Shown: one piece after another, positions 4,827 to 18,648 of the stretch
Layout: each line of letters begins with the position of its first letter
Numbering within the stretch: position 1 is the stretch's first letter
IMG/VR virus record: IMGVR_UViG_3300002092_000003
Coordinates: 60,982-80,981 of that record
Length of the DNA: 20,000 nucleotides
DNA from: an uncultured virus (IMG/VR IMGVR_UViG_3300002092_000003)
Lineage: Duplodnaviria; Heunggongvirae; Uroviricota; Caudoviricetes
Direction: 5' to 3' (one strand)
Made by a program: the position numbers and the translations under genes
The notes under the pieces: generated by a model
The model's input: the letters and a program-made list of their open reading frames with translations, nothing else
Database searches by the model: none
Told to the model about the DNA's origin: nothing

Positions 4827-5012
4827 ATGGAATATGTTGAAACTAAAAAGGGTTCGTTCTTAGTATTTGATACAGACGAAGAGTATTTGCAATTAGCTTT
4901 TGCTGCATATGAAGTTTTTAAATTTCGCGGAAAAACAAAAAAGATTTGCGATAAGTATATAAACAGATATATTAATTTGGCATTGAGAGAATACATTGAG
5001 AAATTAAAATGA
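4827..5012 (+). CDS. hypothetical protein
   Basis: 61 aa ORF in the operon; ATGA overlap with the next gene. Confidence 0.6.
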   Translation: MEYVETKKGSFLVFDTDEEYLQLAFAAYEVFKFRGKTKKICDKYINRYINLALREYIEKLK

Positions 5013-5206
5013 CGTATAAGGACATAAAGCTATGGAGTCTTCCGATAGATAAGGACACGCCATATCGTGACATTACTGAATATGTTCGGTTTAAAACCGA
5101 ACGCAGTTGGTATGCCACCATCACTAAGCAGCACGGCTACTATCACTTAAGGCTAGATGTATTCGATAGTAAATTAGTAGATGCAATCTTCATGAGTGAT
5201 ATGTGA
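5009..5206 (+). CDS. small protein with C-terminal SK[LV]xxA[LI] motif
   Basis: Ends FDSKLVDAIFMSDM; ATGA/GTGA coupling to neighbours. Confidence 0.7.
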   Translation: MTYKDIKLWSLPIDKDTPYRDITEYVRFKTERSWYATITKQHGYYHLRLDVFDSKLVDAIFMSDM

Positions 5207-5394
5207 AATTGAAATACTATTTCGATACTAGACGCAATAATACAGATTTATTATATCTTTTAACAAAAGCTTATTCTGAAGATATAGAAGAACTTGGTAT
5301 ATGGTTTCAAAAACTAGGCAGGGATACTCATAGTATTAGAGTAGATTCCGTTAACTCAAAATTAATTATAGCAATGTTCCGGGAGAAAATATGA
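5203..5394 (+). CDS. small protein with C-terminal SK[LV]xxA[LI] motif
   Basis: Ends VNSKLIIAMFREKI; 4-nt overlaps on both sides. Confidence 0.7.
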   Translation: MKLKYYFDTRRNNTDLLYLLTKAYSEDIEELGIWFQKLGRDTHSIRVDSVNSKLIIAMFREKI

Positions 5395-6113
5395 GAGAAG
5401 AATTTTATGATCGATGGGTAAATATGCAACACGGCATGGAACTCGATCCAGATATCAATAAAGGAAAACGAAATAATGAAAATGGTATACTATACTTAGC
5501 TGAATATATTATGTGCCTACACAAGGAAGCAGATATAGTTACTTATGATAAATTAGTATTTGAGCAAATAGTATCTAATCTGCGTTATCAAGATGCCGGA
5601 GTCTATAATAGAGGGGAAGGGGAATCTACTTCTGCTCACGTAAACTTTGTACCTGCTGAATCTCGAAGATCTATATCGCATGATAATATCACAGGAATAT
5701 CTTGTGCAAGCTATCTGTTAGGAAATAAAGAGGAGTGTAAAGCTATCGCAAATCACGGTCTTAAGAATTTTTTTGTATTTAATAATATTAAGCCTTTATT
5801 TTCATTCCCCTTTAATCCCGGTAATATAGCCCCTTGGTTAGCCTTGGGCGGGCACGAGCTTCTGGCTTTAGTATTTCTTCCCTTTTTTATTATAAATTTT
5901 CTTATTACTATGTGTAAAGGAAAACAAGATACTAGCAGTAAAAAACTATATATACTTACTCTTTACACGCTAAGAGATGTGTTTGGATTTGGGTGGCTAA
6001 ATACTCTTTTAATTAAACGCATGGAATCTCAATATGGCGGAGGATACTTACATGAGATTTATAGTATTTATTATACCAATGTGAATCATCCTTTACGAGA
6101 AATTACAAAATAG
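5391..6113 (+). CDS. hypothetical protein with a hydrophobic (possibly membrane) segment
   Basis: 240 aa ORF with GGGAG RBS; hydrophobic stretch LLALVFLPFFIINFLITM. Confidence 0.8.
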   Translation: MREEFYDRWVNMQHGMELDPDINKGKRNNENGILYLAEYIMCLHKEADIVTYDKLVFEQIVSNLRYQDAGVYNRGEGESTSAHVNFVPAESRRSISHDNITGISCASYLLGNKEECKAIANHGLKNFFVFNNIKPLFSFPFNPGNIAPWLALGGHELLALVFLPFFIINFLITMCKGKQDTSSKKLYILTLYTLRDVFGFGWLNTLLIKRMESQYGGGYLHEIYSIYYTNVNHPLREITK

Positions 6114-6116
6114 TAT

Positions 6117-6145
6117 TTGACTTTTTTTTAGTATTATAGTATTGT
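6117..6145 (+). promoter_or_regulatory. putative sigma70 promoter
   Basis: TTGACT-17 nt-TATTGT in the intergenic gap upstream of ORF 6193. Confidence 0.5.
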
Positions 6146-6150
6146 ATCTT

Positions 6151-6183
6151 GACGGCATCCCTGCCGTCTTAACCTTCGGTTAA
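6151..6183. other. two adjacent hairpins directly before an RBS
   Basis: GACGGCA-TCCC-TGCCGTC followed by TTAACC-TTC-GGTTAA, abutting AAGGAG. Confidence 0.6.
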
Positions 6184-6192
6184 AGGAGAGCT

Positions 6193-6450
6193 ATGAAATC
6201 TGCTAAGACTTTACATAAAATAGCTCATGCCTATCAAGCTGCTATGCCTGTAAGCTCAATCAAAGAATTGAGCGACACTATCGAAATTCATGCACATCTC
6301 GGCGCTGAACTATGCGAATTGTTCGTTGCTGAAAAAATAAGTGAGACTGCCGTAAAGCAACTTAGGAAGAGTGGTTTTACGGTATCTTATCTTAAATTTG
6401 TATCTAATAATAATTGGAGACTCGTCTCTATTAATTGGGAGAAACCTTAA
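6193..6450 (+). CDS. hypothetical protein
   Basis: 85 aa with a strong AAGGAG RBS. Confidence 0.8.
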   Translation: MKSAKTLHKIAHAYQAAMPVSSIKELSDTIEIHAHLGAELCELFVAEKISETAVKQLRKSGFTVSYLKFVSNNNWRLVSINWEKP

Positions 6451-6758
6451 TGACCGATATCAAAAATCCATTTAGTATTGTTGCCCCCCTATCTATTACA
6501 GGAGACATTCCCGCACTAGAGGGAGTGATGACCTATGCAACTTCCGAGTCTGTTCCCCCGGAACAAGAACCTGATATCCGAACTCCTATCGAGCGCATGA
6601 TACAGAAGGAGTTAAAGTCAGATAAGTTTCTATTAGCTTATTATGATGAGAACGGCGATGTAGGATTTTATACCGGCGAAGGTATGGACCCGGAAGGTAT
6701 AAGCTTTATTACAGATGTAATGAAAGCAAGAGTAATGATGCAGCTTCTATTAGATTAG
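6450..6758 (+). CDS. hypothetical acidic protein (start likely ATG 6450, MTDIKNPF...)
   Basis: TAATG coupling and GGGAG upstream. Confidence 0.75.
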   Translation: MTDIKNPFSIVAPLSITGDIPALEGVMTYATSESVPPEQEPDIRTPIERMIQKELKSDKFLLAYYDENGDVGFYTGEGMDPEGISFITDVMKARVMMQLLLD

Positions 6759-6794
6759 AAGTTCTAAATATAAATTATTTACAGGAGGTGGGTT

Positions 6795-6944
6795 ATCCCA
6801 TTAAAAAAAGGCGGATCGAAAAAGACAATTAGCGAGAACATTAAGACGGAAGTTAAAGCAGGAAGACCAGTTAAACAAGCTGCGGCTATTGCTTATTCAG
6901 AAGCTAATAAATCTAAAAAGAAGCCATCGAAGAAAAAGAAATAA
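6795..6944 (+). CDS. small basic phage protein of the 'MPLKKG.S.KTIS.NI...AGRP.KQA.AIA.S' type, apparent AUC start
   Basis: Translation (I/M)PLKKGGSKKTISENIKTEVKAGRPVKQAAAIAYSEANKSKKKPSKKKK. AGGAGG lies 6 nt upstream and there is no in-frame ATG/GTG/TTG. Not in the ORF track. Confidence 0.75.
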   Translation: MPLKKGGSKKTISENIKTEVKAGRPVKQAAAIAYSEANKSKKKPSKKKK

Positions 6945-7199
6945 ATGAATAACGTAGAAATATTTGAAGGATTAGAAGATTTAGTCAAAACAATTAGTTT
7001 AGGTAAACACAACTATTTCTTTGGAGTTCTACAATCATTAAGAACTAAACAAGTCCAGTATAAACTATCACGCCCAGCCTACACAAGTAAAGTGTTAGTT
7101 GGGCTTTTAAAACAGGAATATGAAACGCGTATGTATTCTGCAGGATTCACTACGGATGTTAGCAGTTACAAATACAGACAGGTAATTAAACAGTTTTAG
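6945..7199 (+). CDS. hypothetical protein (internal SKVLVGLL motif variant)
   Basis: 84 aa ORF starting immediately after the previous stop. Confidence 0.6.
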   Translation: MNNVEIFEGLEDLVKTISLGKHNYFFGVLQSLRTKQVQYKLSRPAYTSKVLVGLLKQEYETRMYSAGFTTDVSSYKYRQVIKQF

Positions 7200-7464
7200 T
7201 CTTGCATTTGTCACAGCATCTACTAGCACCATTTGCAAGTGTCATGTCTTCGCCACACACATTACAAGGCACAGTCGTGCCCAAGGGAATGTTCCCGGCG
7301 GCTAGTCTTCTCTTCGCATCGTAGGCAAGCTTATAAGCGGAATAGCATTCTGGACAACGCTTACCATACCAGCGATTTCCGTTAGCATCCACATATATAT
7401 AGTAGCCTCTGTACTTTTCTAGTATTGTTCTCTCTTTATCTTCTGAGCATATTTTACAAATCAT
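7186..7464 (-). CDS. multi-CxxC zinc-finger protein, the only convincing minus-strand gene
   Basis: CKIC, CPEC, CNVC, CCDKC. Probable start at MICKIC with GGAGAAGG upstream on the minus strand. Confidence 0.75.
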   Translation of the reverse strand: MICKICSEDKERTILEKYRGYYIYVDANGNRWYGKRCPECYSAYKLAYDAKRRLAAGNIPLGTTVPCNVCGEDMTLANGASRCCDKCKTKTV

Positions 7465-7465
7465 C

Positions 7466-7494
7466 TTGACCTTCTCCAACATTTATGATACCAT
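7466..7494 (+). promoter_or_regulatory. putative sigma70 promoter (extended -10)
   Basis: TTGACC-17 nt-TACCAT with TGn; lies upstream of the 7505-8692 gene cluster. Confidence 0.45.
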
Positions 7495-7504
7495 ACACTA
7501 GTAT

Positions 7505-7714
7505 TTGTTAACCTTCACAACGAAGTTGGTATTTATATATTACTATCACTTTATTTCCCGCATAGGATTCCTTAGAAGTTACATCAGCGACGGGAAGGTG
7601 GAGTATTGGGCAACCAAGATAACAGATGGTCAAATGCACCTATCTCCTACCATAACTAAAAAGACTCTAGTATGTAGTAGCGTACTGCTTGCAATCTTCG
7701 GAAAGAGCATATGA
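7505..7714 (+). CDS. small protein with C-terminal motif variant
   Basis: Ends VCSSVLLAIFGKSI; the start is uncertain (TTG, no clear RBS). Confidence 0.55.
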   Translation: MLTFTTKLVFIYYYHFISRIGFLRSYISDGKVEYWATKITDGQMHLSPTITKKTLVCSSVLLAIFGKSI

Positions 7715-7983
7715 AGCGAACACAAACCTTTATAGACTATGTATTATCTCGCGCTAAGAAGCGGGGAAATCCTTATAATTTCTCTAGTGCCTTAGACATA
7801 CCATATTACACATTAGACATGACTGATGAATGGGAGGCTATTGAGAGCCTGAAGAGTGCATGGACTTATGCGGCTTTAATCGAGCATGGTAAAACAGGTA
7901 GGGTTATATTCCCCCATGAGGTAGTACATTGTAAGATATGTAAGGCACTGTTCCTGCCTATAGAAGAGGCGGAAGACCTATGA
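7711..7983 (+). CDS. small protein with C-terminal motif variant
   Basis: Ends HCKICKALFLPIEEAEDL; ATGA overlaps. Confidence 0.7.
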   Translation: MKRTQTFIDYVLSRAKKRGNPYNFSSALDIPYYTLDMTDEWEAIESLKSAWTYAALIEHGKTGRVIFPHEVVHCKICKALFLPIEEAEDL

Positions 7984-8171
7984 TGTACCTATACAAGTCT
8001 AAGCTGCTAGAAAACCTAATAGACATACATAACATTACAGGAAGGCAGTATGATAACTTTAGCTGGCATAGGTATATGTATGATGAAGACTTAACGCTAA
8101 AGGAAGAAGCTGTATTCAGCAAGCTTATCACCTCTATATTTGAAGGACTAAATACTGATGAAACCATATAA
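7980..8171 (+). CDS. small protein with C-terminal SK[LV]xx[AS][LI] motif
   Basis: Ends VFSKLITSIFEGLNTDETI; GAGG RBS. Confidence 0.7.
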   Translation: MMYLYKSKLLENLIDIHNITGRQYDNFSWHRYMYDEDLTLKEEAVFSKLITSIFEGLNTDETI

Positions 8172-8379
8172 TTTCAATATGTTGCATAAGATAGGATGGG
8201 TAATAGCAACAGAGAATCCTATTAACGAGTTGATGCTATATGTCACAGGATTCTATGCGCCTATGATCCATGATAGCGAGTTCGTAAGAACACACTACAG
8301 CCATGTCTGGAGGGAAGAGGTAATAGTGTCTAAAGTCACCACAGCCCTGCTACAAGCAAACACAAGTATAAGGAGTTAG
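8158..8379 (+). CDS. small protein with C-terminal SK[LV]xxA[LI] motif
   Basis: Ends IVSKVTTALLQANTSIRS; AAGGA RBS. Confidence 0.7.
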   Translation: MKPYNFNMLHKIGWVIATENPINELMLYVTGFYAPMIHDSEFVRTHYSHVWREEVIVSKVTTALLQANTSIRS

Positions 8380-8380
8380 G

Positions 8381-8554
8381 ATGATACCTTCCAAATACAA
8401 ATATTACATCTACCGGGCTTCAGGAGCTTCACAAGGCTTCTCAAAGCATAGGCATAGAGCCGGAGGATTGCTTAGGGCAGGATGTGGCTATGTGAGATAT
8501 GATGCAAGATGGTCGTCAGTGATGTTGGCATTGCTACCAAGGGAGAAGAACTAA
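8381..8554 (+). CDS. small basic protein (57 aa) with C-terminal motif variant
   Basis: MIPSKYKYYIYRASG...RWSSVMLALLPREKN with AAGGAG RBS; below the track length cutoff. Confidence 0.65.
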   Translation: MIPSKYKYYIYRASGASQGFSKHRHRAGGLLRAGCGYVRYDARWSSVMLALLPREKN

Positions 8555-8692
8555 ATGAAAGAACTATTAGAGAGGCTAGAAGCTCAGATGCATGCAGTAG
8601 CGGGAATTACTGGTATCCGACGAGGCAATCCTCCTAGAGCAATACACAAAATATACAAAGATGCTGGTCTTAAAAGCAAATTGTTAGCATAG
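8555..8692 (+). CDS. small protein (45 aa) ending in truncated motif KSKLLA
   Basis: MKELLERLEAQMHAVAGITG...GLKSKLLA with GGGAG RBS. Confidence 0.55.
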   Translation: MKELLERLEAQMHAVAGITGIRRGNPPRAIHKIYKDAGLKSKLLA

Positions 8693-8740
8693 CGTACACA
8701 TATAGTAGATGAGTGTGCGTGTGTAGAGGTAGTATTACAA

Positions 8741-8780
8741 TTCTCACACCTCTCCAGCCTCCCCACCCCCCCCCTACCGC
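8741..8780. other. C-rich / poly-C tract, candidate genome-terminus or packaging region
   Basis: CCTCTCCAGCCTCCCCACCCCCCCCCTACCGC in an AT-rich genome, in a non-coding gap just before the promoter-dense region. Confidence 0.45.
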
Positions 8781-8829
8781 AGTATGTCAAGATAAGCTTA
8801 AGATAAACTGTAGGAATAAAGATTGCATA

Positions 8830-8845
8830 TGCATAGCTCATGCCA
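8830..8845 (-). promoter_or_regulatory. sigma54-like -24/-12 element
   Basis: Minus strand reads TGGCATGAGCTATGCA, versus consensus TGGCACRNNNNTTGCW; GG-N10-GC spacing is exact. Confidence 0.3.
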
Positions 8846-8895
8846 ATGTATAAGCTATTAGTATTACATAGATGTTATGTGATAGTGCATAGTAG

Positions 8896-8924
8896 TTGAC
8901 AAGCTTGATGCAATCTGTTATGAT
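8896..8924 (+). promoter_or_regulatory. sigma70 early promoter
   Basis: TTGACA-17 nt-TATGAT, TGn extended -10, GATGCA in the spacer. Confidence 0.85.
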
Positions 8925-8956
8925 GTATGTATAGAACATAACGCAAGGGGTTAACA

Positions 8957-9130
8957 ATGAGTAAGACACAATCATGGGAAATAGGTCAAGTAGTAAAGGT
9001 AGGGTTTATGACACTGACTGTTATCAGTATGAAGAACGGTGACTATCTGTTAAAATCAGCAAAGGGAGTATACTATAGCTTTATAGCATATCGCGGTATA
9101 TCTAAGCTGGATGATTATGGTAGCTTTTAG
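8957..9130 (+). CDS. small beta-rich hypothetical protein (57 aa)
   Basis: MSKTQSWEIGQVVKVGFMTLTV...YYSFIAYRGISKL with AAGGGG RBS behind a promoter; below the track cutoff. Confidence 0.75.
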   Translation: MSKTQSWEIGQVVKVGFMTLTVISMKNGDYLLKSAKGVYYSFIAYRGISKLDDYGSF

Positions 9131-9173
9131 TATTCTATGACGCTGGCATTAAGTATAATGCTGACTGTTGGTG

Positions 9174-9186
9174 TAAGTGATTGATA
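9174..9186 (-). promoter_or_regulatory. IHF-consensus site
   Basis: Minus strand TATCAA-TCAC-TTA matches WATCAANNNNTTR. A second near-match AATCAG-CTAC-TTA lies at 9291-9303 (-). Confidence 0.4.
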
Positions 9187-9328
9187 ATACTGGAGAGTGT
9201 GACGTTAACAGTTGCAGACTTACGCATAATGTACGCAAAATACTGCGGAGTGTTATAGGCTAGGTTTTTTAGGAAAATTCTGAGGATAGCTAAGTAGCTG
9301 ATTTACTGTATTCCTCTATATTATACTC

Positions 9329-9357
9329 TTGACATAGCATTTCAACTATGATATAAT
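9329..9357 (+). promoter_or_regulatory. perfect-consensus sigma70 promoter
   Basis: TTGACA-17 nt-TATAAT with TGn. Confidence 0.92.
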
Positions 9358-9380
9358 CGTGTAGTAACAAGGAGTTATAT

Positions 9381-9629
9381 ATGGCTAGAATGAATCATCG
9401 TAAACTTAATGCAAAAACGAATGCTATCAGCAAGGGACATTCCGCTGATGCATCGAGTCGCAGGCGTAAAGCGGCTAAACTTGCAAGCGATAAACAAAAG
9501 AAGTATATGAGTAGTTTAGGTATTCGTTATGCTAAAAATATAACGATGCGAAAGGCTAAGGAATTGATATCGGAGTGTTTGAATGCCAAAAGTAAAAAAG
9601 TTGACGTAGCTTTAAATACTCTTGTATAA
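9381..9629 (+). CDS. small basic hypothetical protein (possibly nucleic-acid binding)
   Basis: AAGGAG RBS; K/R-rich; segment ASDKQKKYMSSLGI...AKELIS. Confidence 0.8.
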   Translation: MARMNHRKLNAKTNAISKGHSADASSRRRKAAKLASDKQKKYMSSLGIRYAKNITMRKAKELISECLNAKSKKVDVALNTLV

Positions 9630-9944
9630 ACAAAAGGTTTGAGGCGTTAAACATTACTTTAAGATTGGCGTTTAACTCTTGGCGGCTTTCAACATGTACC
9701 ATTACCGCTAAATATCCCTAATTTACCTTAGACCTTCCGCTTGATTCTTTTGGCATTCGTAATCAAGAACTCGTTAGCCTTAGTTATCCTTGCATAGCTG
9801 TCAGTAATTAAACCAACTTTCACACTGCCCCGAGCCTCTTAGCCTAGTTTGTATATAGGCATTCTTTCACGGTTCTAAGATAAATCAATGGAATAAGTTG
9901 CCTAAGATGGGCGAAATGTACTCATTCATATATATTTGTTAAAA

Positions 9945-9980
9945 CCGAGTTTCACTCGGCAAGTCTTCGACTTTATTTGT
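9945..9980. terminator. tandem hairpins, possible bidirectional intrinsic terminator
   Basis: AAAA-CCGAGT-TTC-ACTCGG followed by AAGTC-TTC-GACTT-TATTTGT. Confidence 0.5.
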
Positions 9981-10004
9981 GCTAGGTAAAATATGCATGG
10001 TATA

Positions 10005-10033
10005 TTGCAATAGCATCCAACCTGTATTATATT
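10005..10033 (+). promoter_or_regulatory. sigma70 promoter
   Basis: TTGCAA-17 nt-TATATT. Confidence 0.6.
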
Positions 10034-10082
10034 ATAGGTAACAAACAAACGGCAACTAGATTGCCCTTAATCGGAGATTACT

Positions 10083-10169
10083 ATGAAAACTATCACTATC
10101 GCCATTACACTTAATATCATCGGTTTATTACTTATTGCTAAAATGATTTCAATCATGCTTGCATTCTAA
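10083..10169 (+). CDS. 28-aa hydrophobic single-TM peptide
   Basis: MKTITIAITLNIIGLLLIAKMISIMLAF with GGAG RBS and its own promoter. Confidence 0.65.
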   Translation: MKTITIAITLNIIGLLLIAKMISIMLAF

Positions 10170-10187
10170 GACGCGTTGTGTTAAAAT
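10159..10187 (+). promoter_or_regulatory. sigma70 promoter
   Basis: TTGCAT-17 nt-TAAAAT, TGn, GACGCG in the spacer. Confidence 0.7.
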
Positions 10188-10218
10188 GAATTAAGAAACA
10201 AAACAAGTGAGGGCATAA

Positions 10219-10494
10219 ATGAAAGCATACTGTAAAGGATACCAATACTCTCTATATCAATCACTTATTCGCTCTACAACGCTTACACTAAGCAACAAAG
10301 GTAAGTATGGCATAGATTACTTAGAATGTCAGATTATATGCGAAAATGGCGTATTTACAATGGAGATGACTGACGGCTTTAAAAGCTTAAAATATACAGT
10401 AGGATTCAATAACTTAAAGCAAGCAATGAATATTGGACATGGTTGGATGGTAGCTTTATTGAATGAACGTAAAACCTATTTAAAGGCGGTATAA
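10219..10494 (+). CDS. hypothetical protein
   Basis: 91 aa with GAGG RBS. Confidence 0.75.
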   Translation: MKAYCKGYQYSLYQSLIRSTTLTLSNKGKYGIDYLECQIICENGVFTMEMTDGFKSLKYTVGFNNLKQAMNIGHGWMVALLNERKTYLKAV

Positions 10495-10495
10495 G

Positions 10496-10693
10496 ATGAC
10501 ATTACAACTACTACAAGATATGTACCTTGACTATGTAAACAACTTCTTAAGCATCGAACGGTTTGCCGAATACCACGGTATGGAATACTATGACGCTGAA
10601 TGGCTTATAGAGCAAGGCAAGGCTTTAAACGCCGTTCAAGGGCATATTACAAGTATGAATGTATGCATGATATTGAATAAAACAGACCGATAA
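10496..10693 (+). CDS. small phage hypothetical protein (YLDYVNNFLSIERFAEYHG)
   Basis: AAGGCGGT RBS; 65 aa. Confidence 0.75.
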   Translation: MTLQLLQDMYLDYVNNFLSIERFAEYHGMEYYDAEWLIEQGKALNAVQGHITSMNVCMILNKTDR

Positions 10694-10721
10694 TAAACGA
10701 AGTTTAAACGAGGTTACGAGT

Positions 10722-10865
10722 ATGTTTAAAAAAATAGACGTATATTACAATGGTAAGTATTTATATTCAACTAATAGCAGCAAAACATGTAAAGAGGCTA
10801 AGGCTAAAATGCTGAAATTGTATCCGAAAATGAATGAAGCTCGGCTTAAAGTATATTTTGCTTAA
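10722..10865 (+). CDS. small hypothetical protein (47 aa)
   Basis: MFKKIDVYYNGKYLYSTNSSKTCKEAK... with GAGG RBS; below the track cutoff. Confidence 0.7.
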   Translation: MFKKIDVYYNGKYLYSTNSSKTCKEAKAKMLKLYPKMNEARLKVYFA

Positions 10866-10877
10866 AAAGAGGTGGTT

Positions 10878-11096
10878 ATGACATTACTAGAAAAGTTACA
10901 ACAGATTGATAAAAGCTTTGAATTTAATTTAAATGATGATATCTACGAGTCAAAAAGTTTTGAAGTTGTATGGATTGAATCCGATATATTTACAGTATCT
11001 TATATTACTCAAGATTTAGATACCGGAATAATCAATTATCATCTTAAAGGTATTATGAGTGAAGAACAATTACTAAATTATATTAAAAACTATTGA
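10878..11096 (+). CDS. acidic hypothetical protein
   Basis: GAGGTGG RBS before ATG 10878. Confidence 0.7.
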   Translation: MTLLEKLQQIDKSFEFNLNDDIYESKSFEVVWIESDIFTVSYITQDLDTGIINYHLKGIMSEEQLLNYIKNY

Positions 11097-11121
11097 CTAA
11101 TACAATGCGTTAAGATATACT
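11093..11121 (+). promoter_or_regulatory. sigma70 promoter
   Basis: TTGACT-17 nt-TATACT, AATGCG in the spacer. Confidence 0.8.
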
Positions 11122-11152
11122 AGTTATAGGCAACAAAAACAGAGAGGGAATT

Positions 11153-11332
11153 ATGAGCGAATACGAAGCACTAAAGCAATATGACGAAATGCTAGATGAA
11201 CTTTATGGTGAAATCAAAATATGTGGCTATGAATATTCCGCTAGCAATGCATTAAAGGAAGTTGATCCAATTGCCTATAGATGCGGATTTAATGATTTTT
11301 GTGATGCTGAAAACATTGAAATTGAAGATTAA
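11153..11332 (+). CDS. very acidic 59-aa early protein (candidate DNA mimic / anti-defence)
   Basis: MSEYEALKQYDEMLDELYGEIKICGYEYSASNALKEVDPIAYRCGFNDFCDAENIEIED; 16 D/E versus 4 K/R; GAGGG RBS. Confidence 0.75.
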   Translation: MSEYEALKQYDEMLDELYGEIKICGYEYSASNALKEVDPIAYRCGFNDFCDAENIEIED

Positions 11333-12173: not shown

Positions 12174-12202
12174 TTGACAAGCTTAACGCAAAATGTTAGA
12201 AT
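12174..12202 (+). promoter_or_regulatory. sigma70 promoter
   Basis: TTGACA-17 nt-TAGAAT, TGn; near-identical to the promoter at 13082. Confidence 0.85.
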
Positions 12203-12233
12203 AATTTAAGGATACAAAAACAGAGAGGTATTT

Positions 12234-12452
12234 ATGTCAGAATTAGAAATCAGAAATGAACTAACAAGGCTTGAACCGCTCGCTATTATTTACAGTACTA
12301 TGGATAGGGAATACTATAACGAGATACAAGCTGAAATAAGACGCTTAGAGCTATTACTGTTAGATCACATGGTATCTAATAATGTAGCCTTAACAGAATT
12401 AGAATCCGACAATGAAGTAGCACAAGACCTATTCGATTTATATAACGCATAA
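12234..12452 (+). CDS. acidic helical hypothetical protein
   Basis: 72 aa with GAGG RBS. Confidence 0.75.
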   Translation: MSELEIRNELTRLEPLAIIYSTMDREYYNEIQAEIRRLELLLLDHMVSNNVALTELESDNEVAQDLFDLYNA

Positions 12453-12467
12453 ACAAAAAGGAATACT

Positions 12468-13079
12468 ATGAAAGCATTATTAATTTTATCGACACTTACA
12501 CTATTAGCATCATGCGGTAAACACCACGTTGCCGACGGTATAGACGGCAAGGATGGCTATTCCCTTGTAGCCCTTAGTGGTAGTATTGTTGCTAACGCAT
12601 CGTGTCCAGCGGGCGGAGTAGCTACTACAATATACAAAGACTTAAATCGAAATGAAGTTGTGGATTTAGATACTGATAAATTAGTAAGCAGTTTCATTGT
12701 ATGTAATGGTTTGACAGGGGCGCAGGGTAATGCAGGGGATAACGGAATAAACGGTCAAAATGGGGCGCAAGGCAGTCAAGGCGCGGCGGGGCAAAACGGT
12801 ACTAATGGAATAAATGGAACAAACGGCACCAATGGTGCGTCAAGCATCTTACAAGTAATTAATTTACGCCATGACATTTGTGGGGAATCTACAGTAAACT
12901 TTTCAGAAGTAGTTATCAAGCTAGCCGACGGGCGATATCTTGCAAGCTTTTCAGATGATGTAAATGGGTATAATACAAGATTTACTATATTAGTACAAGG
13001 AATAGGATACCAAACAACGGATAATACAAACTGCAGATTTATGCTTAATTCTAGCAATGTATTGGTGAAAATACAATAG
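12468..13079 (+). CDS. lipoprotein with collagen-like Gly-X-Y repeat
   Basis: Signal peptide with lipobox LASC; 15 consecutive GXY triplets (GLT...GAS) flanked by Cys-containing domains. Confidence 0.85.
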   Translation: MKALLILSTLTLLASCGKHHVADGIDGKDGYSLVALSGSIVANASCPAGGVATTIYKDLNRNEVVDLDTDKLVSSFIVCNGLTGAQGNAGDNGINGQNGAQGSQGAAGQNGTNGINGTNGTNGASSILQVINLRHDICGESTVNFSEVVIKLADGRYLASFSDDVNGYNTRFTILVQGIGYQTTDNTNCRFMLNSSNVLVKIQ

Positions 13080-13081
13080 TA

Positions 13082-13110
13082 TTGACAAGTTTAATGCAAA
13101 ATGTTATAAT
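13082..13110 (+). promoter_or_regulatory. perfect-consensus sigma70 promoter
   Basis: TTGACA-17 nt-TATAAT, TGn, AATGCA in the spacer. Confidence 0.92.
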
Positions 13111-13126
13111 AATTTAAGAGGTGTAT

Positions 13127-13273
13127 GTGAACAATTACTTTATAAACATGGTATGTACTAACGGAAAAATTAGCTACTTTGTGCTAAATTTACACGATGC
13201 ATTATTTAGAAAACAGTTTCAAACACTTAAAGATGCAAAAAAAGAAGCTAAAAAACTAAACAAGGCGGTATAA
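13127..13273 (+). CDS. small hypothetical protein (48 aa)
   Basis: GAGG RBS with GTG start; ends ...FRKQFQTLKDAKKEAKKLNKAV. Confidence 0.6.
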   Translation: MNNYFINMVCTNGKISYFVLNLHDALFRKQFQTLKDAKKEAKKLNKAV

Positions 13274-13274
13274 A

Positions 13275-13457
13275 ATAATAACACTATTAAATACTGAAAC
13301 AGACGAACAAGTAACATGGACACTTCAAGAGGTGTTAGCCGATCTTAACCGTGATAGGTCAGACGGTTGGCGCAATTACGATGAAAGCGATTGGCAAGAG
13401 GGCTTACAGCATTTTACACAATGGCAAGTGGTTGATAACAAAAGTCAAGGGGAATAG
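13275..13457 (+). CDS. small Trp/acidic phage protein (60 aa), apparent AUA start
   Basis: (I/M)ITLLNTETDEQVTWTLQEVLADLNRDRSDGWRNYDESDWQEGLQHFTQWQVV.... The RBS AAGGCGGT-N5 has the same spacing as in ATG genes 10496, 13910 and 14792. An in-frame stop lies at 13257. Confidence 0.65.
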   Translation: MITLLNTETDEQVTWTLQEVLADLNRDRSDGWRNYDESDWQEGLQHFTQWQVVDNKSQGE

Positions 13458-13458
13458 T

Positions 13459-13668
13459 ATGAGTTTTGCAAAAGAAAATGGAATTGATGTATATAGACTT
13501 GTAGCGCATTTAGATAGTGGCAAGTATAGCGTAGAGAACGGCACTAAAACGCCTTTGACAATTGCCCCTTTAGATACAATGGATGAGGCTATAGACTTTA
13601 TATACAAGCATAATGTGGCGCGTGGAAGTGTATCGTGTAGGTATGTATTAGTAGAATCAAAGGAGTAA
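13459..13668 (+). CDS. hypothetical protein (true start likely ATG 13459, MSFAKENG...)
   Basis: AAGGGG RBS; the track extension to 13351 overlaps the AUA-start gene. Confidence 0.7.
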   Translation: MSFAKENGIDVYRLVAHLDSGKYSVENGTKTPLTIAPLDTMDEAIDFIYKHNVARGSVSCRYVLVESKE

Positions 13669-13671
13669 TTT

Positions 13672-13908
13672 ATGCAAACTATAAAAATACAGAGATATAG
13701 TAATCGCAAATTGTACAATTATGAAATGTCGCGTCATGTAAATGTAAAAGAATTAAAGGAGTTTATTGATGCAGGGTTTAATTTAATTGTTGTAAATCAT
13801 GACACAGGTGAGGATGTTACACGGCAAACGGTAGGGGAACTTATAAAGCAATCGGAAGGTGACTTGACTAATGTTTACTTGTTTATGTTAAAACGTAAGG
13901 CGGTATAG
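13672..13908 (+). CDS. PhaR-like (PHB/PHA accumulation regulator N-terminal) DNA-binding domain protein
   Basis: IKIQRYSNRKLYNYEMSRHVNVKELKEFIDAG...VVNHDTGEDVTRQTVGELI matches the PhaR N-domain pattern IKKYxNRRLY...S.Y.....G....V....TGEDxT. Confidence 0.8.
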   Translation: MQTIKIQRYSNRKLYNYEMSRHVNVKELKEFIDAGFNLIVVNHDTGEDVTRQTVGELIKQSEGDLTNVYLFMLKRKAV

Positions 13909-13909
13909 T

Positions 13910-14128
13910 ATGTTTAAAATAAATGAAAAAGTAATAGCTTACGGACTTGATGGCGTTATAATTAGCATAGATACTAAAAATAGCTTAACATACCCGATCA
14001 AGGCTAGATTTTCTAATAACCGCATTGCTACTTTTACACTTACTGGTATTCATGACGTTTGGCACAAAAAAAGTGAATTGAAAAAAGCAACTATGATAAA
14101 TAAATTAATAATGAAGTTTTTTCCATAG
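13910..14128 (+). CDS. small SH3/KOW-like hypothetical protein
   Basis: MFKINEKV...GVIISID...YPIKARF...TFTLTG. Confidence 0.7.
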   Translation: MFKINEKVIAYGLDGVIISIDTKNSLTYPIKARFSNNRIATFTLTGIHDVWHKKSELKKATMINKLIMKFFP

Positions 14129-14137
14129 GAGTAATTT

Positions 14138-14488
14138 ATGTATTACGAATTAAGACAGAAGATATTGCCGCAACTCATTGAAATAAGATATACAGTAAAA
14201 CAGGATAAAACTATATTTAACATTAGATTATTTAGAGTAGCAATTCCCGCTTTAAATCAATGTTATTTTACGTCTACTCTGAATGATTCAATATTACCGA
14301 GATCATTTAGATCTTCGTGTTTTAAAATAAAAGGTATGGACATAGTGGATTCAATGGAGTATTATGATAGTAGAAACATAAAAAGAGGTGAACATATTTA
14401 CGAAAAAGATGTGCAATTTAAAACAATGAGAACATTAACTTTAAAAGAAATATATAATTTTGCTAAAACTAAAACATTAAGTATTTAA
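14138..14488 (+). CDS. hypothetical protein
   Basis: AGGAG RBS; 116 aa. Confidence 0.75.
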   Translation: MYYELRQKILPQLIEIRYTVKQDKTIFNIRLFRVAIPALNQCYFTSTLNDSILPRSFRSSCFKIKGMDIVDSMEYYDSRNIKRGEHIYEKDVQFKTMRTLTLKEIYNFAKTKTLSI

Positions 14489-14495
14489 AAAAGGA

Positions 14496-14780
14496 ATGAC
14501 TAATATGCAATTTAAAACAATAGAAAATTTAGAGGACTGGGAAAAATCTTATCCCGAAATGTATAAAGTAATTCACGATGTAATAAAAGAAGAAAATTTA
14601 AAAGACCTTATATTTTGCGGAGTTAGGAGATATTCCCCTCTTTTACGAATAGGCTCCTTCGACATAGCAGTAGAGGGCAGCTTATATAGGCTAGGATTTA
14701 CCTTCACATGCAATGACGATGGTACTAACTTAGATTATTGTACTTACGAAGACGATGGACGATACTTTCAATATAAATAA
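14496..14780 (+). CDS. hypothetical protein
   Basis: 94 aa; the start may be ATG 14505. Confidence 0.7.
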   Translation: MTNMQFKTIENLEDWEKSYPEMYKVIHDVIKEENLKDLIFCGVRRYSPLLRIGSFDIAVEGSLYRLGFTFTCNDDGTNLDYCTYEDDGRYFQYK

Positions 14781-14791
14781 GGCGGTATAGC

Positions 14792-14977
14792 ATGGTTATT
14801 GAATCTTTAATTGCATTACTTGTAGTAATATTAGGCGCAATACTATTCTGCTTAGGGATTATAGTAATAGCTAAAATCTGGTATTACTCATGGTTCGCAA
14901 TCACCTTTGTACTTGTATATATTCAGCAAAAAGGCAATTATGGCTATGCGCAACATAAACTATTGACAAAAAACTAA
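14792..14977 (+). CDS. small membrane protein
   Basis: Long hydrophobic N-terminus; AAGGCGGT RBS. Confidence 0.7.
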   Translation: MVIESLIALLVVILGAILFCLGIIVIAKIWYYSWFAITFVLVYIQQKGNYGYAQHKLLTKN

Positions 14978-14990
14978 TATCTGTTATACT
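14963..14990 (+). promoter_or_regulatory. sigma70 promoter
   Basis: TTGACA-16 nt-TATACT with TGn. Confidence 0.7.
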
Positions 14991-15018
14991 AAGTGTAGTA
15001 CTTAAAAACAGGAGTTTT

Positions 15019-15120
15019 ATGAAAGCACTAATTATCATCACATTACTAGCGATTATGACAGCATGTACAACTAATGTAGTTTCACCACAACAAGCTAAAC
15101 AAGATGCAAGAAGTAGATAG
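15019..15120 (+). CDS. 33-aa lipoprotein
   Basis: MKALIIITLLAIMTA-CTTNVVSPQQAKQDARSR; lipobox-like site; AGGAG RBS. Confidence 0.65.
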   Translation: MKALIIITLLAIMTACTTNVVSPQQAKQDARSR

Positions 15121-15298
15121 TAAATTCTATTGCCACTGCATAGGCGATATTTCTTGCTTTTATACTTTAGATTCTTATTGGCATTCTTATAATGCCGGAG
15201 ACTTATTAGCACAGCAAGAGGATTTTGGAAACGATCTAGGCAACTATAGAAAATGTATTCTATATACAAAACTTTTAAAAGCATTATATGAGGTGTAA
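15104..15298 (+). CDS. small protein with C-terminal TK[LV]xxAL motif
   Basis: Ends LYTKLLKALYEV. Confidence 0.6.
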   Translation: MQEVDSKFYCHCIGDISCFYTLDSYWHSYNAGDLLAQQEDFGNDLGNYRKCILYTKLLKALYEV

Positions 15299-15299
15299 C

Positions 15300-15518
15300 A
15301 TGTTAGCATATCTTAAAAACTTTATTATTGGCTTGGCAGTTGCATCTTTCGTAGCTGGGGCAATCATAATACTATTTAACATCTTTCAGTATTTCTATCT
15401 TAATTACGATTTTAACGCTAAATATGCCTTGTATATTACCTTATTCTTTGGTAGTATTCATGGGCTAGCATTAGTGGGATCGGCAACGGCAAAATATTTA
15501 CAAAGGAAAAGCAAATGA
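15300..15518 (+). CDS. two-TM membrane protein
   Basis: GAGGT RBS before ATG 15300; two hydrophobic segments. Confidence 0.7.
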   Translation: MLAYLKNFIIGLAVASFVAGAIIILFNIFQYFYLNYDFNAKYALYITLFFGSIHGLALVGSATAKYLQRKSK

Positions 15519-15904
15519 ATTTTGAAGAGAGTTATGATACAAATGGACCTGAGCTTATTAGCCGCTTTAGAGAGCTGCTTAAGCTTAAATTTGGCGCAGA
15601 GAGTGACCTAGCTAGTGCAAGAAATAAAGTAAGCCGTATAAGCCTATTAGGTAACGCAGATAACGAGATTATAGCTCATAGCAAAGAATCTATTCCAGCG
15701 GATAATGTAGCACAAATACAGATTCGTTCTGTTTTAGTATTGTCGCAGTTTTATTTAAGCATTGATGACATTATGCAGTTGCTAGATGATGCAGAATTAT
15801 TTACAGAGCTACTAAATAAGCTTGCAAGTAAGAGCAGTAGAGTGTATGCTACTAAAGAGCAGGTTTATGAAACAAGTGGATTGCTAATACAGTTTCTACG
15901 TTAG
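15515..15904 (+). CDS. hypothetical protein
   Basis: 129 aa; AAGGA RBS; ATGA overlap. Confidence 0.75.
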   Translation: MNFEESYDTNGPELISRFRELLKLKFGAESDLASARNKVSRISLLGNADNEIIAHSKESIPADNVAQIQIRSVLVLSQFYLSIDDIMQLLDDAELFTELLNKLASKSSRVYATKEQVYETSGLLIQFLR

Positions 15905-15913
15905 GAGTAATTT

Positions 15914-16228
15914 ATGATTTATGTGAGTTTAATACTAAATGTTATTATTATTTTAGTATACTTTAAGAGCGGCGATAAAGCATCTCAATCTGATTTCATT
16001 AACCTTAAGATAGAAGTTGATAAATTACGATCTAAAACGCTTAAGTTTAAAAAAGGTGATTATGTTGTGTATAATAATGTAAAATGTTTTATTTCTAGTA
16101 TTAATATTGATAGATATGAAGGGTTTTCGTATGCGGTGCATAGTCCCTATCATATACAAGGACCGAACATCTCTCGATATATAGGAGAAGCTGAATTAAC
16201 AATACTAAAATGCAAAAAGGAAAAATAA
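15914..16228 (+). CDS. membrane-anchored hypothetical protein with SH3-like C-domain
   Basis: N-terminal TM, then KFKKGDYVVY; AGGAG RBS. Confidence 0.7.
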   Translation: MIYVSLILNVIIILVYFKSGDKASQSDFINLKIEVDKLRSKTLKFKKGDYVVYNNVKCFISSINIDRYEGFSYAVHSPYHIQGPNISRYIGEAELTILKCKKEK

Positions 16229-16376
16229 ATGCTATCAATACTAATTCGCGGTTTACTAACGATTTTAATCGGCTTACTCTTAAAGCAAAGGGAATTCCTA
16301 AGCTTTATAGGCATAAGCTATCTTGTTGACATGGCTTACTATGTTATGATAATACTGCAAACAAAAGGGCGGGGCG

Positions 16377-17270
16377 GTGAATAAAGGTATCAGGCTATCG
16401 CATAGCTCTCGCGAAACATATAATTCTTGTCCGCAAAAGTGGAAGCTTCACTATATAAATAAGTATCGTTCCCGACGCACTACGTCAGCTCTCGTTTTCG
16501 GGTCATCGATAGATAACGCATTAAACGATTTACTGCTAAACGGCAATTACGCACAAGCTGAATTAATATTCACGGACGAATGGCTAACATACAAAAATGC
16601 TAATCACATAGATTTTTATCCGAGCGATTACGATAGCTCATTATTGACGCTACAAGACGTTGAGACTATCGAAGCTATAGCAGACGATGCAGAACGTAAA
16701 CATGCCTTAGCATGGCATACGTTGCTTGTAAAAGGCATTGTGATGCTACGAGCATACCATACAGATATTTACCCCCGCATTAAGAAGGTACATAGCGTAC
16801 AGACACCTGTAAACTTAATTGGAATGCTGGAAGATGGTACTGAGTCTACTGACTCCATCAGCGGGTTCATCGATTGTATTCTTGACTTAGAATTAGATGA
16901 CGGCACGATAGCTACTGTAATTGTAGATAACAAGACTAGCAGTACGCCATATCCTAAGAACGCAGTACTAACAAAAGAGCAAACTGCTTTGTATTCCTTA
17001 GCCTATCCTGATATTGAATACGCAGCGTTTGCCGTTATGGTTAAAAAATCTTTAGGCAGAACGCAATTGCTGATTGGTAAGCCGCCAGAAGAATTAAAAC
17101 AGAAAGTGCTTGACAATTTTGTTGAAACATTAGAGAATATAAACGCGGGAAAGTTCCCGCAGAACAGAAAATCATGCTTTAGTTTTGGCAGTAAATGCTG
17201 TTATTATAGCTATTGCCACGGAGAAGGATTCGATGAGAACATCTTTGAGAAAATCGATGAAAACAAGTAA
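16377..17270 (+). CDS. PD-(D/E)XK (RecB/Cas4-like) exonuclease
   Basis: LSHS...CPQKW, GFIDC, IVDNKTS, QTALY, and a C-terminal Cys cluster CFSFGSKCCYYSYC (Fe-S staple pattern). Confidence 0.88.
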   Translation: MNKGIRLSHSSRETYNSCPQKWKLHYINKYRSRRTTSALVFGSSIDNALNDLLLNGNYAQAELIFTDEWLTYKNANHIDFYPSDYDSSLLTLQDVETIEAIADDAERKHALAWHTLLVKGIVMLRAYHTDIYPRIKKVHSVQTPVNLIGMLEDGTESTDSISGFIDCILDLELDDGTIATVIVDNKTSSTPYPKNAVLTKEQTALYSLAYPDIEYAAFAVMVKKSLGRTQLLIGKPPEELKQKVLDNFVETLENINAGKFPQNRKSCFSFGSKCCYYSYCHGEGFDENIFEKIDENK

Positions 17271-17421
17271 AGAATTATATGCTTGCATAGGTTCTAAAAA
17301 TGTAATAGGATTTATATTAGGTATCTATTCTTTTCATTCTACTTATGATTTTGATTCAAAAATAGGAACTTATGTTAGTAAGATAGTATTTGATACAAAA
17401 CTTATAAAGGCGTTAAGATGA
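17257..17421 (+). CDS. small protein with C-terminal TK[LV]xxAL motif
   Basis: Likely start ATG 17257; ends FDTKLIKALR. Confidence 0.6.
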   Translation: MKTSKELYACIGSKNVIGFILGIYSFHSTYDFDSKIGTYVSKIVFDTKLIKALR

Positions 17422-17639
17422 GATATCTAGATACACATAAAGCGGATAAAAGTAAACTGTGGGTGGTATATTCTAATCAAATAAATCCAGCAATCACTTC
17501 CACAATGGCAAGATACTTCTATTCATCTAAGGACTTAGCCCAACATTGGACAAGGTTAGTATCTGATAATACTAGTAAATGGCAGTATATGAAACTTTCC
17601 GCTGGACAATCGAAAGTAATTGAGGCATTATACAAATGA
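17418..17639 (+). CDS. small protein with C-terminal SK[LV]xxAL motif
   Basis: Ends GQSKVIEALYK; ATGA overlaps. Confidence 0.7.
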   Translation: MRYLDTHKADKSKLWVVYSNQINPAITSTMARYFYSSKDLAQHWTRLVSDNTSKWQYMKLSAGQSKVIEALYK

Positions 17640-17851
17640 GTACAATACGTCAACAGATGAGAGCATCAAAATGTGCAGTTGGATGGGTAGAAAAAAGAAT
17701 TCCTACGAGAAGACTGCGAGAGCTTGTAAAGGGACATTTTACTTGCTGTGAAGATTACGCCCTAAACAGCGATTCTATGTTATACTATAAAGTTAGCGTA
17801 ATTAAAAGCAAAGTAATACAAATACTATTAAAGGAGAAACTATGTCAGTAA
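17636..17851 (+). CDS. small protein with C-terminal motif variant
   Basis: Ends IKSKVIQILLKEKLCQ. Confidence 0.7.
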   Translation: MSTIRQQMRASKCAVGWVEKRIPTRRLRELVKGHFTCCEDYALNSDSMLYYKVSVIKSKVIQILLKEKLCQ

Positions 17852-18252
17852 AAGTAATGAAGGTGTACGAATTAGCTCGCAAACACAATGAGCCTGTATC
17901 AGACTTCGTAGCCAAGCTTAATAGCTTAGGCTTTACAGTAAAGTCTCACCTATCCTCATTAACCGCAGAAGACCTTGTAACCATTAGCGCATTGCTATCG
18001 AATACAGGCTTGGAAGAAGTTATTCCGCCGAAAGCAAGTAACCTCGACAAAAAAGTATATCCTGAATGCTGTAGTGTTGTGATTACAAAAGTAAGTGAAC
18101 GCCAGTATACTATTAGTATTGTTGATAGTAAAATTGTGAATGGAATGCTTGAGGTTACTGTAGTAGAGCAAGATAGCAGTAGCAGAAGTAAAGCTGAGGC
18201 TTTAATAGAAGCTGATAGAATCGGCTATAAATACAAGATTGACCGAACGTGA
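17842..18252 (+). CDS. protein with an N-terminal translation initiation factor IF2 N-domain-like module
   Basis: KVMKVYELARKHNEPVSDFVAKLNSLGFTVKSHLSSLTAED matches the IF2_N pattern RVYELAKELG....EL...L..LG..VKSH.S.L; AAGGAG RBS. Confidence 0.75.
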   Translation: MSVKVMKVYELARKHNEPVSDFVAKLNSLGFTVKSHLSSLTAEDLVTISALLSNTGLEEVIPPKASNLDKKVYPECCSVVITKVSERQYTISIVDSKIVNGMLEVTVVEQDSSSRSKAEALIEADRIGYKYKIDRT

Positions 18253-18437
18253 AGAGATACTACTTCGGAGTGATAAGCTGTGCTAATTATTGGAAGCTTA
18301 CGATTATTCAGCGTGGAGCTAGAGCTAATTTACCTCTATACGCAATTCAACCTGACAGCCCATATAATAGAGAGTATAATCACAGAATAGCAGAAGGTGT
18401 TTGGGAATCTAAAGTAGCAAAGGCATTATATGCGTGA
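18249..18437 (+). CDS. small protein with C-terminal SK[LV]xxAL motif
   Basis: Ends WESKVAKALYA. Confidence 0.7.
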   Translation: MKRYYFGVISCANYWKLTIIQRGARANLPLYAIQPDSPYNREYNHRIAEGVWESKVAKALYA

Positions 18438-18648
18438 AAAATTTAGACGATTAAATTTCAAAATAGGCGATCCTTGCGATGGATTTAATCCTAGCAGAGT
18501 AATTTGTACTATATTTAATAGAAATTTTAGACGTCACAGGCTAGATACTAACCATCTATTCTATGAACAGTATTATACCACTGAAAGTTATATGCTAAAA
18601 CAGACGGTATACGGTAGTAAACTAGTAGGTGCATTATGCGAAAGTTAG
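18430..18648 (+). CDS. small protein with C-terminal SK[LV]xxAL motif
   Basis: Ends YGSKLVGALCES. Confidence 0.7.
   Translation: MREKFRRLNFKIGDPCDGFNPSRVICTIFNRNFRRHRLDTNHLFYEQYYTTESYMLKQTVYGSKLVGALCES

Follow-up and report, generated by a model that had tools for sequence, protein, structure and literature searches.

Why should more than a dozen short and apparently dissimilar genes of one tailed phage end in almost the same eight amino acids (aa)? The question is raised by a 20,000-nucleotide stretch of DNA from an uncultured member of the Caudoviricetes (IMG/VR record IMGVR_UViG_3300002092_000003), here called the window, whose positions 1-20000 correspond to G000:C1:60982-80981 and are the last 20 kb of the contig (G000:C1; 80,981 bp, GC 36%). 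A preliminary description of the window had listed 13 small proteins with a C-terminal octapeptide of the type [ST]-K-[LV]-x-x-A-[LI]-[FYL] and had read them as unrelated modules sharing one tag. The earlier observation is confirmed, and the phenomenon is larger than first described: the family takes up about 22% of the called genes (~34 of ~154) and about 6.5 kb of the ~81 kb genome. The idea that unrelated proteins carry a portable tag finds only partial support. The reading that we prefer, at a probability of roughly 55%, is that of one tandemly duplicated, fast-diverging family with an invariant C-terminal core and N-terminal specificity, the products of which would be small binders of the replication phase.

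Occurrence of the C-terminal motif

All 13 octapeptides were found on + strand open reading frames (ORFs) at the gene starts first given for them, the start at 17257 being an ATG inside an ORF that is open from 17185, and the motif does lie close to the stop, with tails of 0-10 aa after it. The strict pattern [ST]K[LV]..A[LI][FYL], scored in the last 20 aa, is present in 11/106 called + strand genes and 0/48 - strand genes, and has no internal match in 10,843 + 12,008 aa. A looser pattern is present in 27 of the 106 + strand genes and in none of the 48 on the - strand, with two internal matches. The preliminary description had left the motif to be compared with shuffled C-termini, and here 2000 shuffles of each tail gave means of 0.01 (strict) and 0.144 (looser) with maxima of 1 and 3, to be set against 27 genes for the looser pattern. 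Among mechanically defined ORFs of at least 30 aa the motif was found in 28/317 on the + strand and in 0/239 on the - strand.

An anchored listing over the whole genome gave 34 ORFs, 33 of which were kept as members, 13 in the window and 20 in G000:C1:377-18252. A 34th copy (G000:C1:21514-21699), ending in SGLIKAIF, matched the family hidden Markov model (HMM) with an E-value of 5.7e-5 from outside the training set. In a scan of 812 six-frame ORFs the members scored at least 18 bits and the noise at most 8 bits. Because the 33 members match their own profile by construction, a leave-one-out test was run with full-length HMMs and a search space of 813 ORFs; it recovered 18/33 at E <= 1e-3 and 26/33 at E <= 0.01. 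The members in the window and two doubtful ORFs, all on the + strand, are as follows.

5009..5206, + strand: member of 65 aa, ending ...DVFD-SKLVDAIF-MSDM; HMM 38.4 bits (in training), leave-one-out E 1.1e-3
5203..5394, + strand: member of 63 aa with SKLIIAMF, its start overlapping the preceding stop (GTGA); HMM 34.3 bits, leave-one-out E 3.2e-4
7505..7714, + strand: member of 69 aa with SSVLLAIF; HMM 42.4 bits, leave-one-out E 1.1e-4
7711..7983, + strand: borderline member of 90 aa with CKICKALF and a 9-aa tail; HMM 40.9 bits (in training), leave-one-out E 1.7
7980..8171, + strand: member of 63 aa with SKLITSIF; HMM 41.0 bits, leave-one-out E 1.6e-5
8158..8379, + strand: member P0001, 73 aa, with SKVTTALL; leave-one-out E 2.7e-6
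8381..8554, + strand: borderline member of 57 aa with SSVMLALL; HMM 26.5 bits (in training), leave-one-out E 1.0
15104..15298, + strand: member P0008, 64 aa, with TKLLKALY; leave-one-out E 4.4e-6
17257..17421, + strand: member P0003, 54 aa from ATG 17257, with TKLIKALR abutting the stop; leave-one-out E 6.9e-6
17418..17639, + strand: member of 73 aa with SKVIEALY; leave-one-out E 2.6e-3
17636..17851, + strand: member P0015, 71 aa, with SKVIQILL; leave-one-out E 8.8e-5
18249..18437, + strand: member of 62 aa with SKVAKALY; leave-one-out E 7.6e-4
18430..18648, + strand: member of 72 aa with SKLVGALC; leave-one-out E 9.3e-4
6945..7199, + strand: doubtful and not counted, 84 aa, with an internal SKVLVGLL 28 aa from the end; 7.9 bits, E 0.26, at the top of the noise
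8555..8692, + strand: doubtful and not counted, a 45-aa ORF ending SKLLA*, possibly a truncated copy; no family-HMM match among the 812 six-frame ORFs

These last two had been put forward as weaker copies together with the ORF at window 11445 (134 aa), and none of the three could be upheld; the ORF at 11445, which was the one dropped from the 34 listed, had no HMM support.

One diverged family or unrelated tagged proteins

Are the carriers then unrelated proteins, or copies of one protein that have drifted apart? All of them are 49-90 aa long, with a median of 65, and 0/36 + strand proteins of at least 100 aa (117 aa and up) end in the motif. No Pfam match was obtained at E <= 0.1 for 14 window members and the 2 doubtful ORFs, the members are without PHROG or NCBIfam domains, none is a known-domain protein, and a PDB sequence profile search gave 0 matches at E <= 1. 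Between members, P0001 and its full-length paralog at G000:C1:912-1106 (the pair m69139/m912) share 36% identity over 64 aa (BLASTP, E 3e-6); further member pairs align end to end over 53-67 residues with weak E-values.

To compare the N-terminal parts, each held-out N-terminus was scored with a profile of the remaining members' N-terminal columns; 10/33 beat at least 48 of 50 shuffles, about 2 being the expected number (binomial p 1.3e-5). The N-terminal part of the member at window 7505 alone reached 14.3 bits against the other members and beat 50/50 shuffles. An N-terminal [YF]-x-[YF] is found in 12/33 members and 5/34 non-members (p 0.04). Finally, neighbours tend to be alike: there are 17 adjacent member pairs, and of the 33 pairs that rank highest in similarity 6 are adjacent, against 1.06 expected (p 2.8e-4). 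The lack of mutual similarity that had been reported upstream of the motif therefore stands for 23/33 members, which gave no detectable signal, and does not stand for the ten that beat their shuffles nor for the full-length pairs. The word "unrelated" is not supported, since the carriers are all of one size class, the conservation reaches back to position -9, full-length pairs exist and neighbours are the most alike.

We propose that the family grew through repeated tandem duplication, that the N-terminal two thirds may have diversified so that each copy meets its own partner or site, and that the C-terminal strand-turn-helix would be the invariant core carrying a conserved polar surface. Most likely, the members are non-enzymatic binders that modulate host or phage nucleic-acid or defence machinery, and 34 unrelated cargoes with a portable address label are less likely than such diversified binders.

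The conserved C-terminal unit and its structure

The octapeptide is the end of a longer conserved unit of about 17 residues, aromatic-x-hydrophobic-[KR]-x-x-[VIA]-hydrophobic-x-[ST]-K-[LV]-[IVL]-x-A-[LIM]-[LFY]. In the motif-anchored alignment conservation starts 9 residues upstream of the motif, with an aromatic residue or Leu at -9, a hydrophobic residue at -7, Lys or Arg at -6 (21/33), Val, Ile or Ala at -3 (29/33) and again a hydrophobic residue at -2. The motif itself begins with Ser/Thr (32/33), Lys (26/33) and Leu/Val/Ile (33/33), continues with a hydrophobic and a free position, and ends with Ala (25/33) or Ser (5/33), Leu/Ile/Met/Val (33/33) and Leu/Phe/Tyr (26/33). Directly after the terminal helix there is often a Gly or Lys, and the tails beyond the motif are unrelated in sequence.

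AlphaFold2 (AF2) models were made with the paralogs (33-35) as the only alignment. In the model of window 8158 (predicted local distance difference test, pLDDT, 63.6) a helix runs from K59 directly after S58. The model of the member at G000 912 (m912; pLDDT 74.3, predicted template-modelling score 0.55) has strands at residues 11-16 and 46-50 and helices at 20-28, 51-54 (a helical turn) and 57-63; there the 17-residue unit forms the last strand and the helices, is the best-predicted part (block pLDDT 88) and has its strand paired with the N-terminal strand. The motif had been described as an N-capped amphipathic helix, which agrees with the position of the terminal helix right behind the Ser/Thr in both models (block pLDDT 80-88) and with its mean helical hydrophobic moment of 0.55, compared with 0.34 for control 8-mers; 10/29 terminal helices lie above the 95th percentile of the controls, and the net charge is +1.3. 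The unit may thus be pictured as a short strand, a turn and a two-turn, Ser/Thr-capped, basic amphipathic helix, which could be the shared core of a small beta-alpha-beta-alpha fold, with Lys +1 and Lys/Arg -6 as its single invariant polar surface. In the ESM Atlas there were no usable feature matches, the Atlas models having a pLDDT of 0.45.

Sliding-clamp-binding motifs follow a consensus of the QL[SD]LF type. A motif of this kind at the C-terminus was considered and rejected, as the unit has no leading Gln and a different spacing of its hydrophobic residues (+2, +3, +6 and +7), judged against that general consensus only.

Conservation at the protein or at the DNA level

Could the motif arise from the ribosome-binding site (RBS) and start codon of the next gene, or from a repeated DNA element or recombination site at gene ends? 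Same-residue member pairs do use the same codon somewhat more often (0.451) than expected from genome codon usage (0.398), with an excess only at Lys +1, Ala +5 and Leu +6. This excess arises because the codons for position +4 and Ala +5 often serve as the Shine-Dalgarno (SD) sequence of the next gene: they read AAGGCA, AGGAGC or GAGGCA in 13/33 members, the next start lies 3-13 nucleotides (nt) past the Ala codon in 14/33, and in 9 of these 14 the two codons form the SD. The string AAGGCATTATATG recurs, and at window 18249 the codons AAG GCA TTA TAT G double as SD and start codon (ATG) for the member that follows.

These features speak for a DNA-level origin, but in 17/33 members the next start is more than 13 nt away or there is none, and these keep the motif while a separate SD is used, so that the RBS accounts for a bias at one or two positions and not for the motif. 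The RBS explanation raised in the preliminary description fails on this count, and its view that conservation lies in the protein and not in a DNA repeat is borne out by the codons at position 0. Eight different codons are used there for Ser/Thr (TCN 15, AGY 10, ACN 8), and Ser codons are shared in 66/304 pairs versus 71.5 expected, which is no excess. Many different codons also occur at the conserved hydrophobic positions, and the matches stand in frame at real ORF ends of one strand, with none in the 239 - strand ORFs and only two internal ones. A DNA-level artefact is essentially excluded.

Constraint between orthologs and distribution of the family

Among 5.8 billion clusters, two near-orthologs from other metagenomes were found. 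P0001 and its ortholog P0006, 64% identical, agree at 23/26 of the last columns versus 26/50 of those before, and P0002/P0007 agree at 26/26 versus 47/53. The 17-residue unit is the slowest-evolving part both between paralogs and in the two ortholog pairs. The paralog-specific middle of P0001/P0006 is also conserved, which indicates that individual copies are maintained, and every copy with a relative to compare is conserved. With about one fifth of its genes given to one orphan family whose copies are conserved, the phage would seem to be under strong selection for many versions of one scaffold, and many distinct versions are the pattern expected of binders that engage host targets or defences.

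Searched with the family profile, 1.84 billion representative proteins gave 12 matches at E <= 1e-3, all from the phage's own genome. Since only about one third of the phage's copies reach this E-value, the search could overlook a lone distant copy, but probably not a relative with tens of them. Two distant metagenome loci (L005 and L006), with a primase-helicase 33-34% identical, have no family copy and no analogous shared tail. The family was not described in the literature found by word-based searches, which cannot prove absence from print.

Gene arrangement and expression context

Within the + strand block the copies stand head-to-tail among genes of DNA metabolism, in short runs that are mostly translationally coupled. 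Coupling within the clusters, as first proposed, is seen in 26/33 member starts that overlap the preceding stop or sit at most 20 nt from it. An SD-like site precedes 18/33 member starts, compared with 12% of other ATGs. The members have a median isoelectric point (pI) of 9.0, a net charge of +2.6 and 14.5% aromatic residues versus 11.3% in non-member small proteins; 9/33 are acidic or neutral (pI 4.7-6.9).

A consensus scan of the + strand found five near-perfect extended -10 sigma-70 promoters in the window.

8896-8924, + strand: extended -10 sigma-70 promoter
9329-9357, + strand: extended -10 sigma-70 promoter
12174-12202, + strand: extended -10 sigma-70 promoter
13082-13110, + strand: extended -10 sigma-70 promoter
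14963-14990, + strand: extended -10 sigma-70 promoter, the only one with a 16-nt spacer

They have the form TTGACA-16/17 nt-TG-TATAAT with 11-12/12 matches and lie between genes in a block made up of small ORFs outside the family, in window 8.9-15 kb only; the same scan found none of equal quality in G000 1-20000. From its sequence, this promoter-rich block is likely to be the immediate-early region. Members make up 1/17 of the small + strand genes within it and 31/54 elsewhere (p 1.6e-4), P0008 at window 15104 being the sole one inside, and this suggests that the family is expressed with the replication genes and not with the immediate-early set.

Seven members flank or interleave, in one coupled run, a MoxR-type AAA_5 ATPase gene (G000:C1:1136-2269) and a DUF2201 gene (G000:C1:2670-3905), the product of which is a putative metallopeptidase with a VWA-like domain. 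The ATPase/DUF2201 pair is a candidate hub, to be taken as a lead and not as evidence.

Rival readings of function

With a portable docking or address tag, a variety of small proteins would be joined to one hub by the C-terminal helix, and that hub might be a replisome component of phage or host, a protease, the nearby AAA ATPase and its VWA/metallopeptidase partner, or the interior of the capsid, for cargo that is packaged and ejected. Such a tag would fit a sole strongly conserved part that is short, terminal, amphipathic and provided with invariant polar residues, that evolves slowest in orthologs and that follows N-terminal parts mostly not detectably alike. It could also draw on the seven members around the ATPase and DUF2201 genes, and on the small size and basic character (median pI 9.0) by which the members may resemble packaged internal proteins. 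We nevertheless find this reading doubtful. No carrier exceeds 90 aa or has a known domain, the conservation runs into the preceding strand, which in the model is paired with the N-terminal one, the full-length paralog pairs and the neighbour effect indicate duplication, and the genes are grouped with those for replication, the structural module being on the other strand. Tails of 0-10 aa also put the motif at varying distances from the C-terminus, so that recognition of a free carboxylate is unlikely; the register is not fixed to the free terminus, unlike that of ssrA-like or PDZ-read C-degrons as generally defined. That the 17-residue unit is a common plug by which about 34 different small heads dock onto the same hub of phage or host is likewise unlikely, and if it were true, it would make the family a combinatorial adaptor or cargo library in a mid-sized phage, with no described bacteriophage counterpart.

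A ribbon-helix-helix domain consists of a strand followed by two helices. It is improbable, in our view, that the members are nucleic-acid binders in which the basic strand and the Ser/Thr-Lys start of the helix make a "ribbon-helix"-like contact, as site-specific regulators or structural DNA binders would. Where that fold needs two helices, the members have a single short one, of two turns, between the strand and the stop, no Pfam DNA-binding family, ribbon-helix-helix included, was matched by the 14 window members and 2 doubtful ORFs searched, and the 9/33 acidic or neutral members do not fit, even if the basic median pI, the positive net charge, the aromatic content, the conserved Lys/Arg -6 and Lys +1 at the helix start and the company of replication and recombination genes all would. 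The ~35-copy zinc-ribbon expansion of Bacillus phage G, for which roles of this kind have been proposed, offers an analogy (PMC7824862). Very unlikely is a third possibility, that the basic amphipathic C-terminal helix anchors the proteins at the inner membrane, on its cytoplasmic side. MinD and FtsA are held at the membrane by C-terminal helices, and a terminal basic amphipathic helix of that type is present in the members as a property of their sequence; the hydrophobic moment, the 10/29 helices beyond the control percentile, the net charge of +1.3 and the Gly or Lys often next after the helix would agree with such a tether. Yet an 8-residue helix alone is a weak membrane binder, the conserved small Ala +5 and the conserved preceding strand suit protein packing, the unit is packed at the highest confidence of the AF2 model, and there is no independent sign of membrane function.

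The single-family reading has to be held against several results that weigh on the other side. The leave-one-out test missed four copies (G000 7072, G000 16312, window 7711 and window 8381), which are those with the most degenerate motifs. With 23/33 N-terminal parts giving no detectable similarity to other members, the common descent of every copy is inferred and not demonstrated. The AF2 models are weak (pLDDT 63.6 and 74.3), and that of window 8158 is without strands; fold searches with the better model, that of m912, found no structural neighbour, the best Foldseek match in BFVD having an E-value of 2.7 and the best among 48,161 PDB representatives being one chain with Z 2.1. Where the RBS and start codon of the following gene overlap the C-terminal codons, they could account for part of the extra constraint there. 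Moreover, the suggested timing of expression is drawn from consensus promoter scans with totals at chance level (103 vs 85.5 +/- 9.8; 75 vs 77.9 +/- 10.7).

Comparison with known systems

Among described phenomena, the lineage-specific expansions of small proteins known from large phages come nearest; here the family is an orphan, denser, and in a mid-sized genome. Bacillus phage G, for one, has a genome of about 500 kb. Its ~35-copy zinc-ribbon family has been termed unprecedented, and the zinc ribbons are proposed as specific regulators or binders (PMC7824862). The likeness lies in the tens of diverged, small, non-enzymatic paralogs in one genome and in their restricted distribution (PMC7824862). 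Unlike phage G, our phage has no zinc ribbon in the family, its conservation is centred on the 17-residue C-terminal unit, and its copies lie in scattered short runs and not in a single block. With ~81 kb against ~500 kb, the density of the family is far above that in phage G.

Short terminal address peptides are known from the internal proteins of T4, where a capsid-targeting sequence is N-terminal and cleaved, and from encapsulins, which load their cargo by C-terminal peptides. By analogy, the family could be likened to both, as a short terminal peptide on dissimilar, small and often basic proteins in a virus with an HK97-type capsid; unlike the T4 tag, the unit stands at the C-terminus, runs on into a structured strand, is confined to proteins of 49-90 aa and is encoded in the replication module. 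In poxviruses the ankyrin proteins bind a hub (SCF) by a C-terminal PRANC/F-box-like domain and are thought to serve host interaction. Our family shares with these and other multigene families of eukaryotic DNA viruses a conserved C-terminal element with variable N-terminal parts over many paralogs, although its proteins are far smaller and the hub is known only for the poxviruses. As a compact natural library of variable heads on an invariant 17-residue core, it lends itself to screens for counter-defence or host-takeover activity, and it would be a direct test case for shared terminal modules as phage docking elements.

The phage genome and further observations

The ends of the contig (G000:C1 1-71 and 80911-80981) overlap exactly over 71 bp, and the genome is thus a circular and probably complete assembly. 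In a protein search, however, its proteins also turn up on contigs as long as 118,838 bp. PHROG and Pfam scans identify a tailed phage, with terminase, portal, major head protein and tail fibres on the - strand at 22.4-60.1 kb. The + strand genes form a single unbroken block from 60.3 kb across the junction to 22.4 kb, which includes a ribonucleotide reductase with an intein-like insert, a PD-(D/E)XK exonuclease, Erf, the AAA_5 ATPase, the DUF2201 VWA-like/metallopeptidase protein, a primase-helicase, a family B DNA polymerase, additional nucleases and a deoxynucleoside monophosphate kinase. There are ~154 called genes, 106 on the + strand and 48 on the - strand, and a search for tRNA genes found none.

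Three freshwater metagenome runs contain the same DNA as the phage genome. The sequencing-run contigs gave no usable variation within member genes. Relatives of the phage were sought by blastn and tblastn against 50,697 phage records (0 matches), in IMG/VR scans with the exonuclease, terminase and primase-helicase as queries, and in prokaryote genome contigs with the primase-helicase, and none was found in any of these. The ribonucleotide reductase gene (window 1760-4645, 961 aa) carries its intein-like insertion at about 2689-3733. In run X3 there is a divergent relative, with flanks about 80% identical, in which 2688 is joined to 3734 via 13 other letters, so that it would be without the insertion; for the window stretch 4606-5540 this relative has no match at >=80%.

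Elsewhere in the genome, G000:C1:19221-20000 (+ strand) encodes a ClpP-family serine protease homolog with an N-terminal signal-peptide-like sequence, away from the head genes; the genes after it code for small membrane proteins and a DUF1003 protein. The genome has nine or more genes of the HNH or endonuclease VII type, several of them adjoining family members (for example G000 6317-7072, 8143-8532 and 18245-18625). The primase-helicase (G000:C1:4289-6250) ends in ...GESEDLF and Erf (window 18985-19623) in ...ESDDLDL, acidic tails with a final hydrophobic residue that recall the partner-binding tails of the SSB/T7 type. In the promoter-rich block, window 12468-13079 encodes a predicted lipoprotein with the lipobox LLASC and collagen-like Gly-x-x repeats. 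Window 13672-13908 encodes a 78-aa protein that matches the PhaR-type PHB_acc_N DNA-binding domain (E 1.7e-14).

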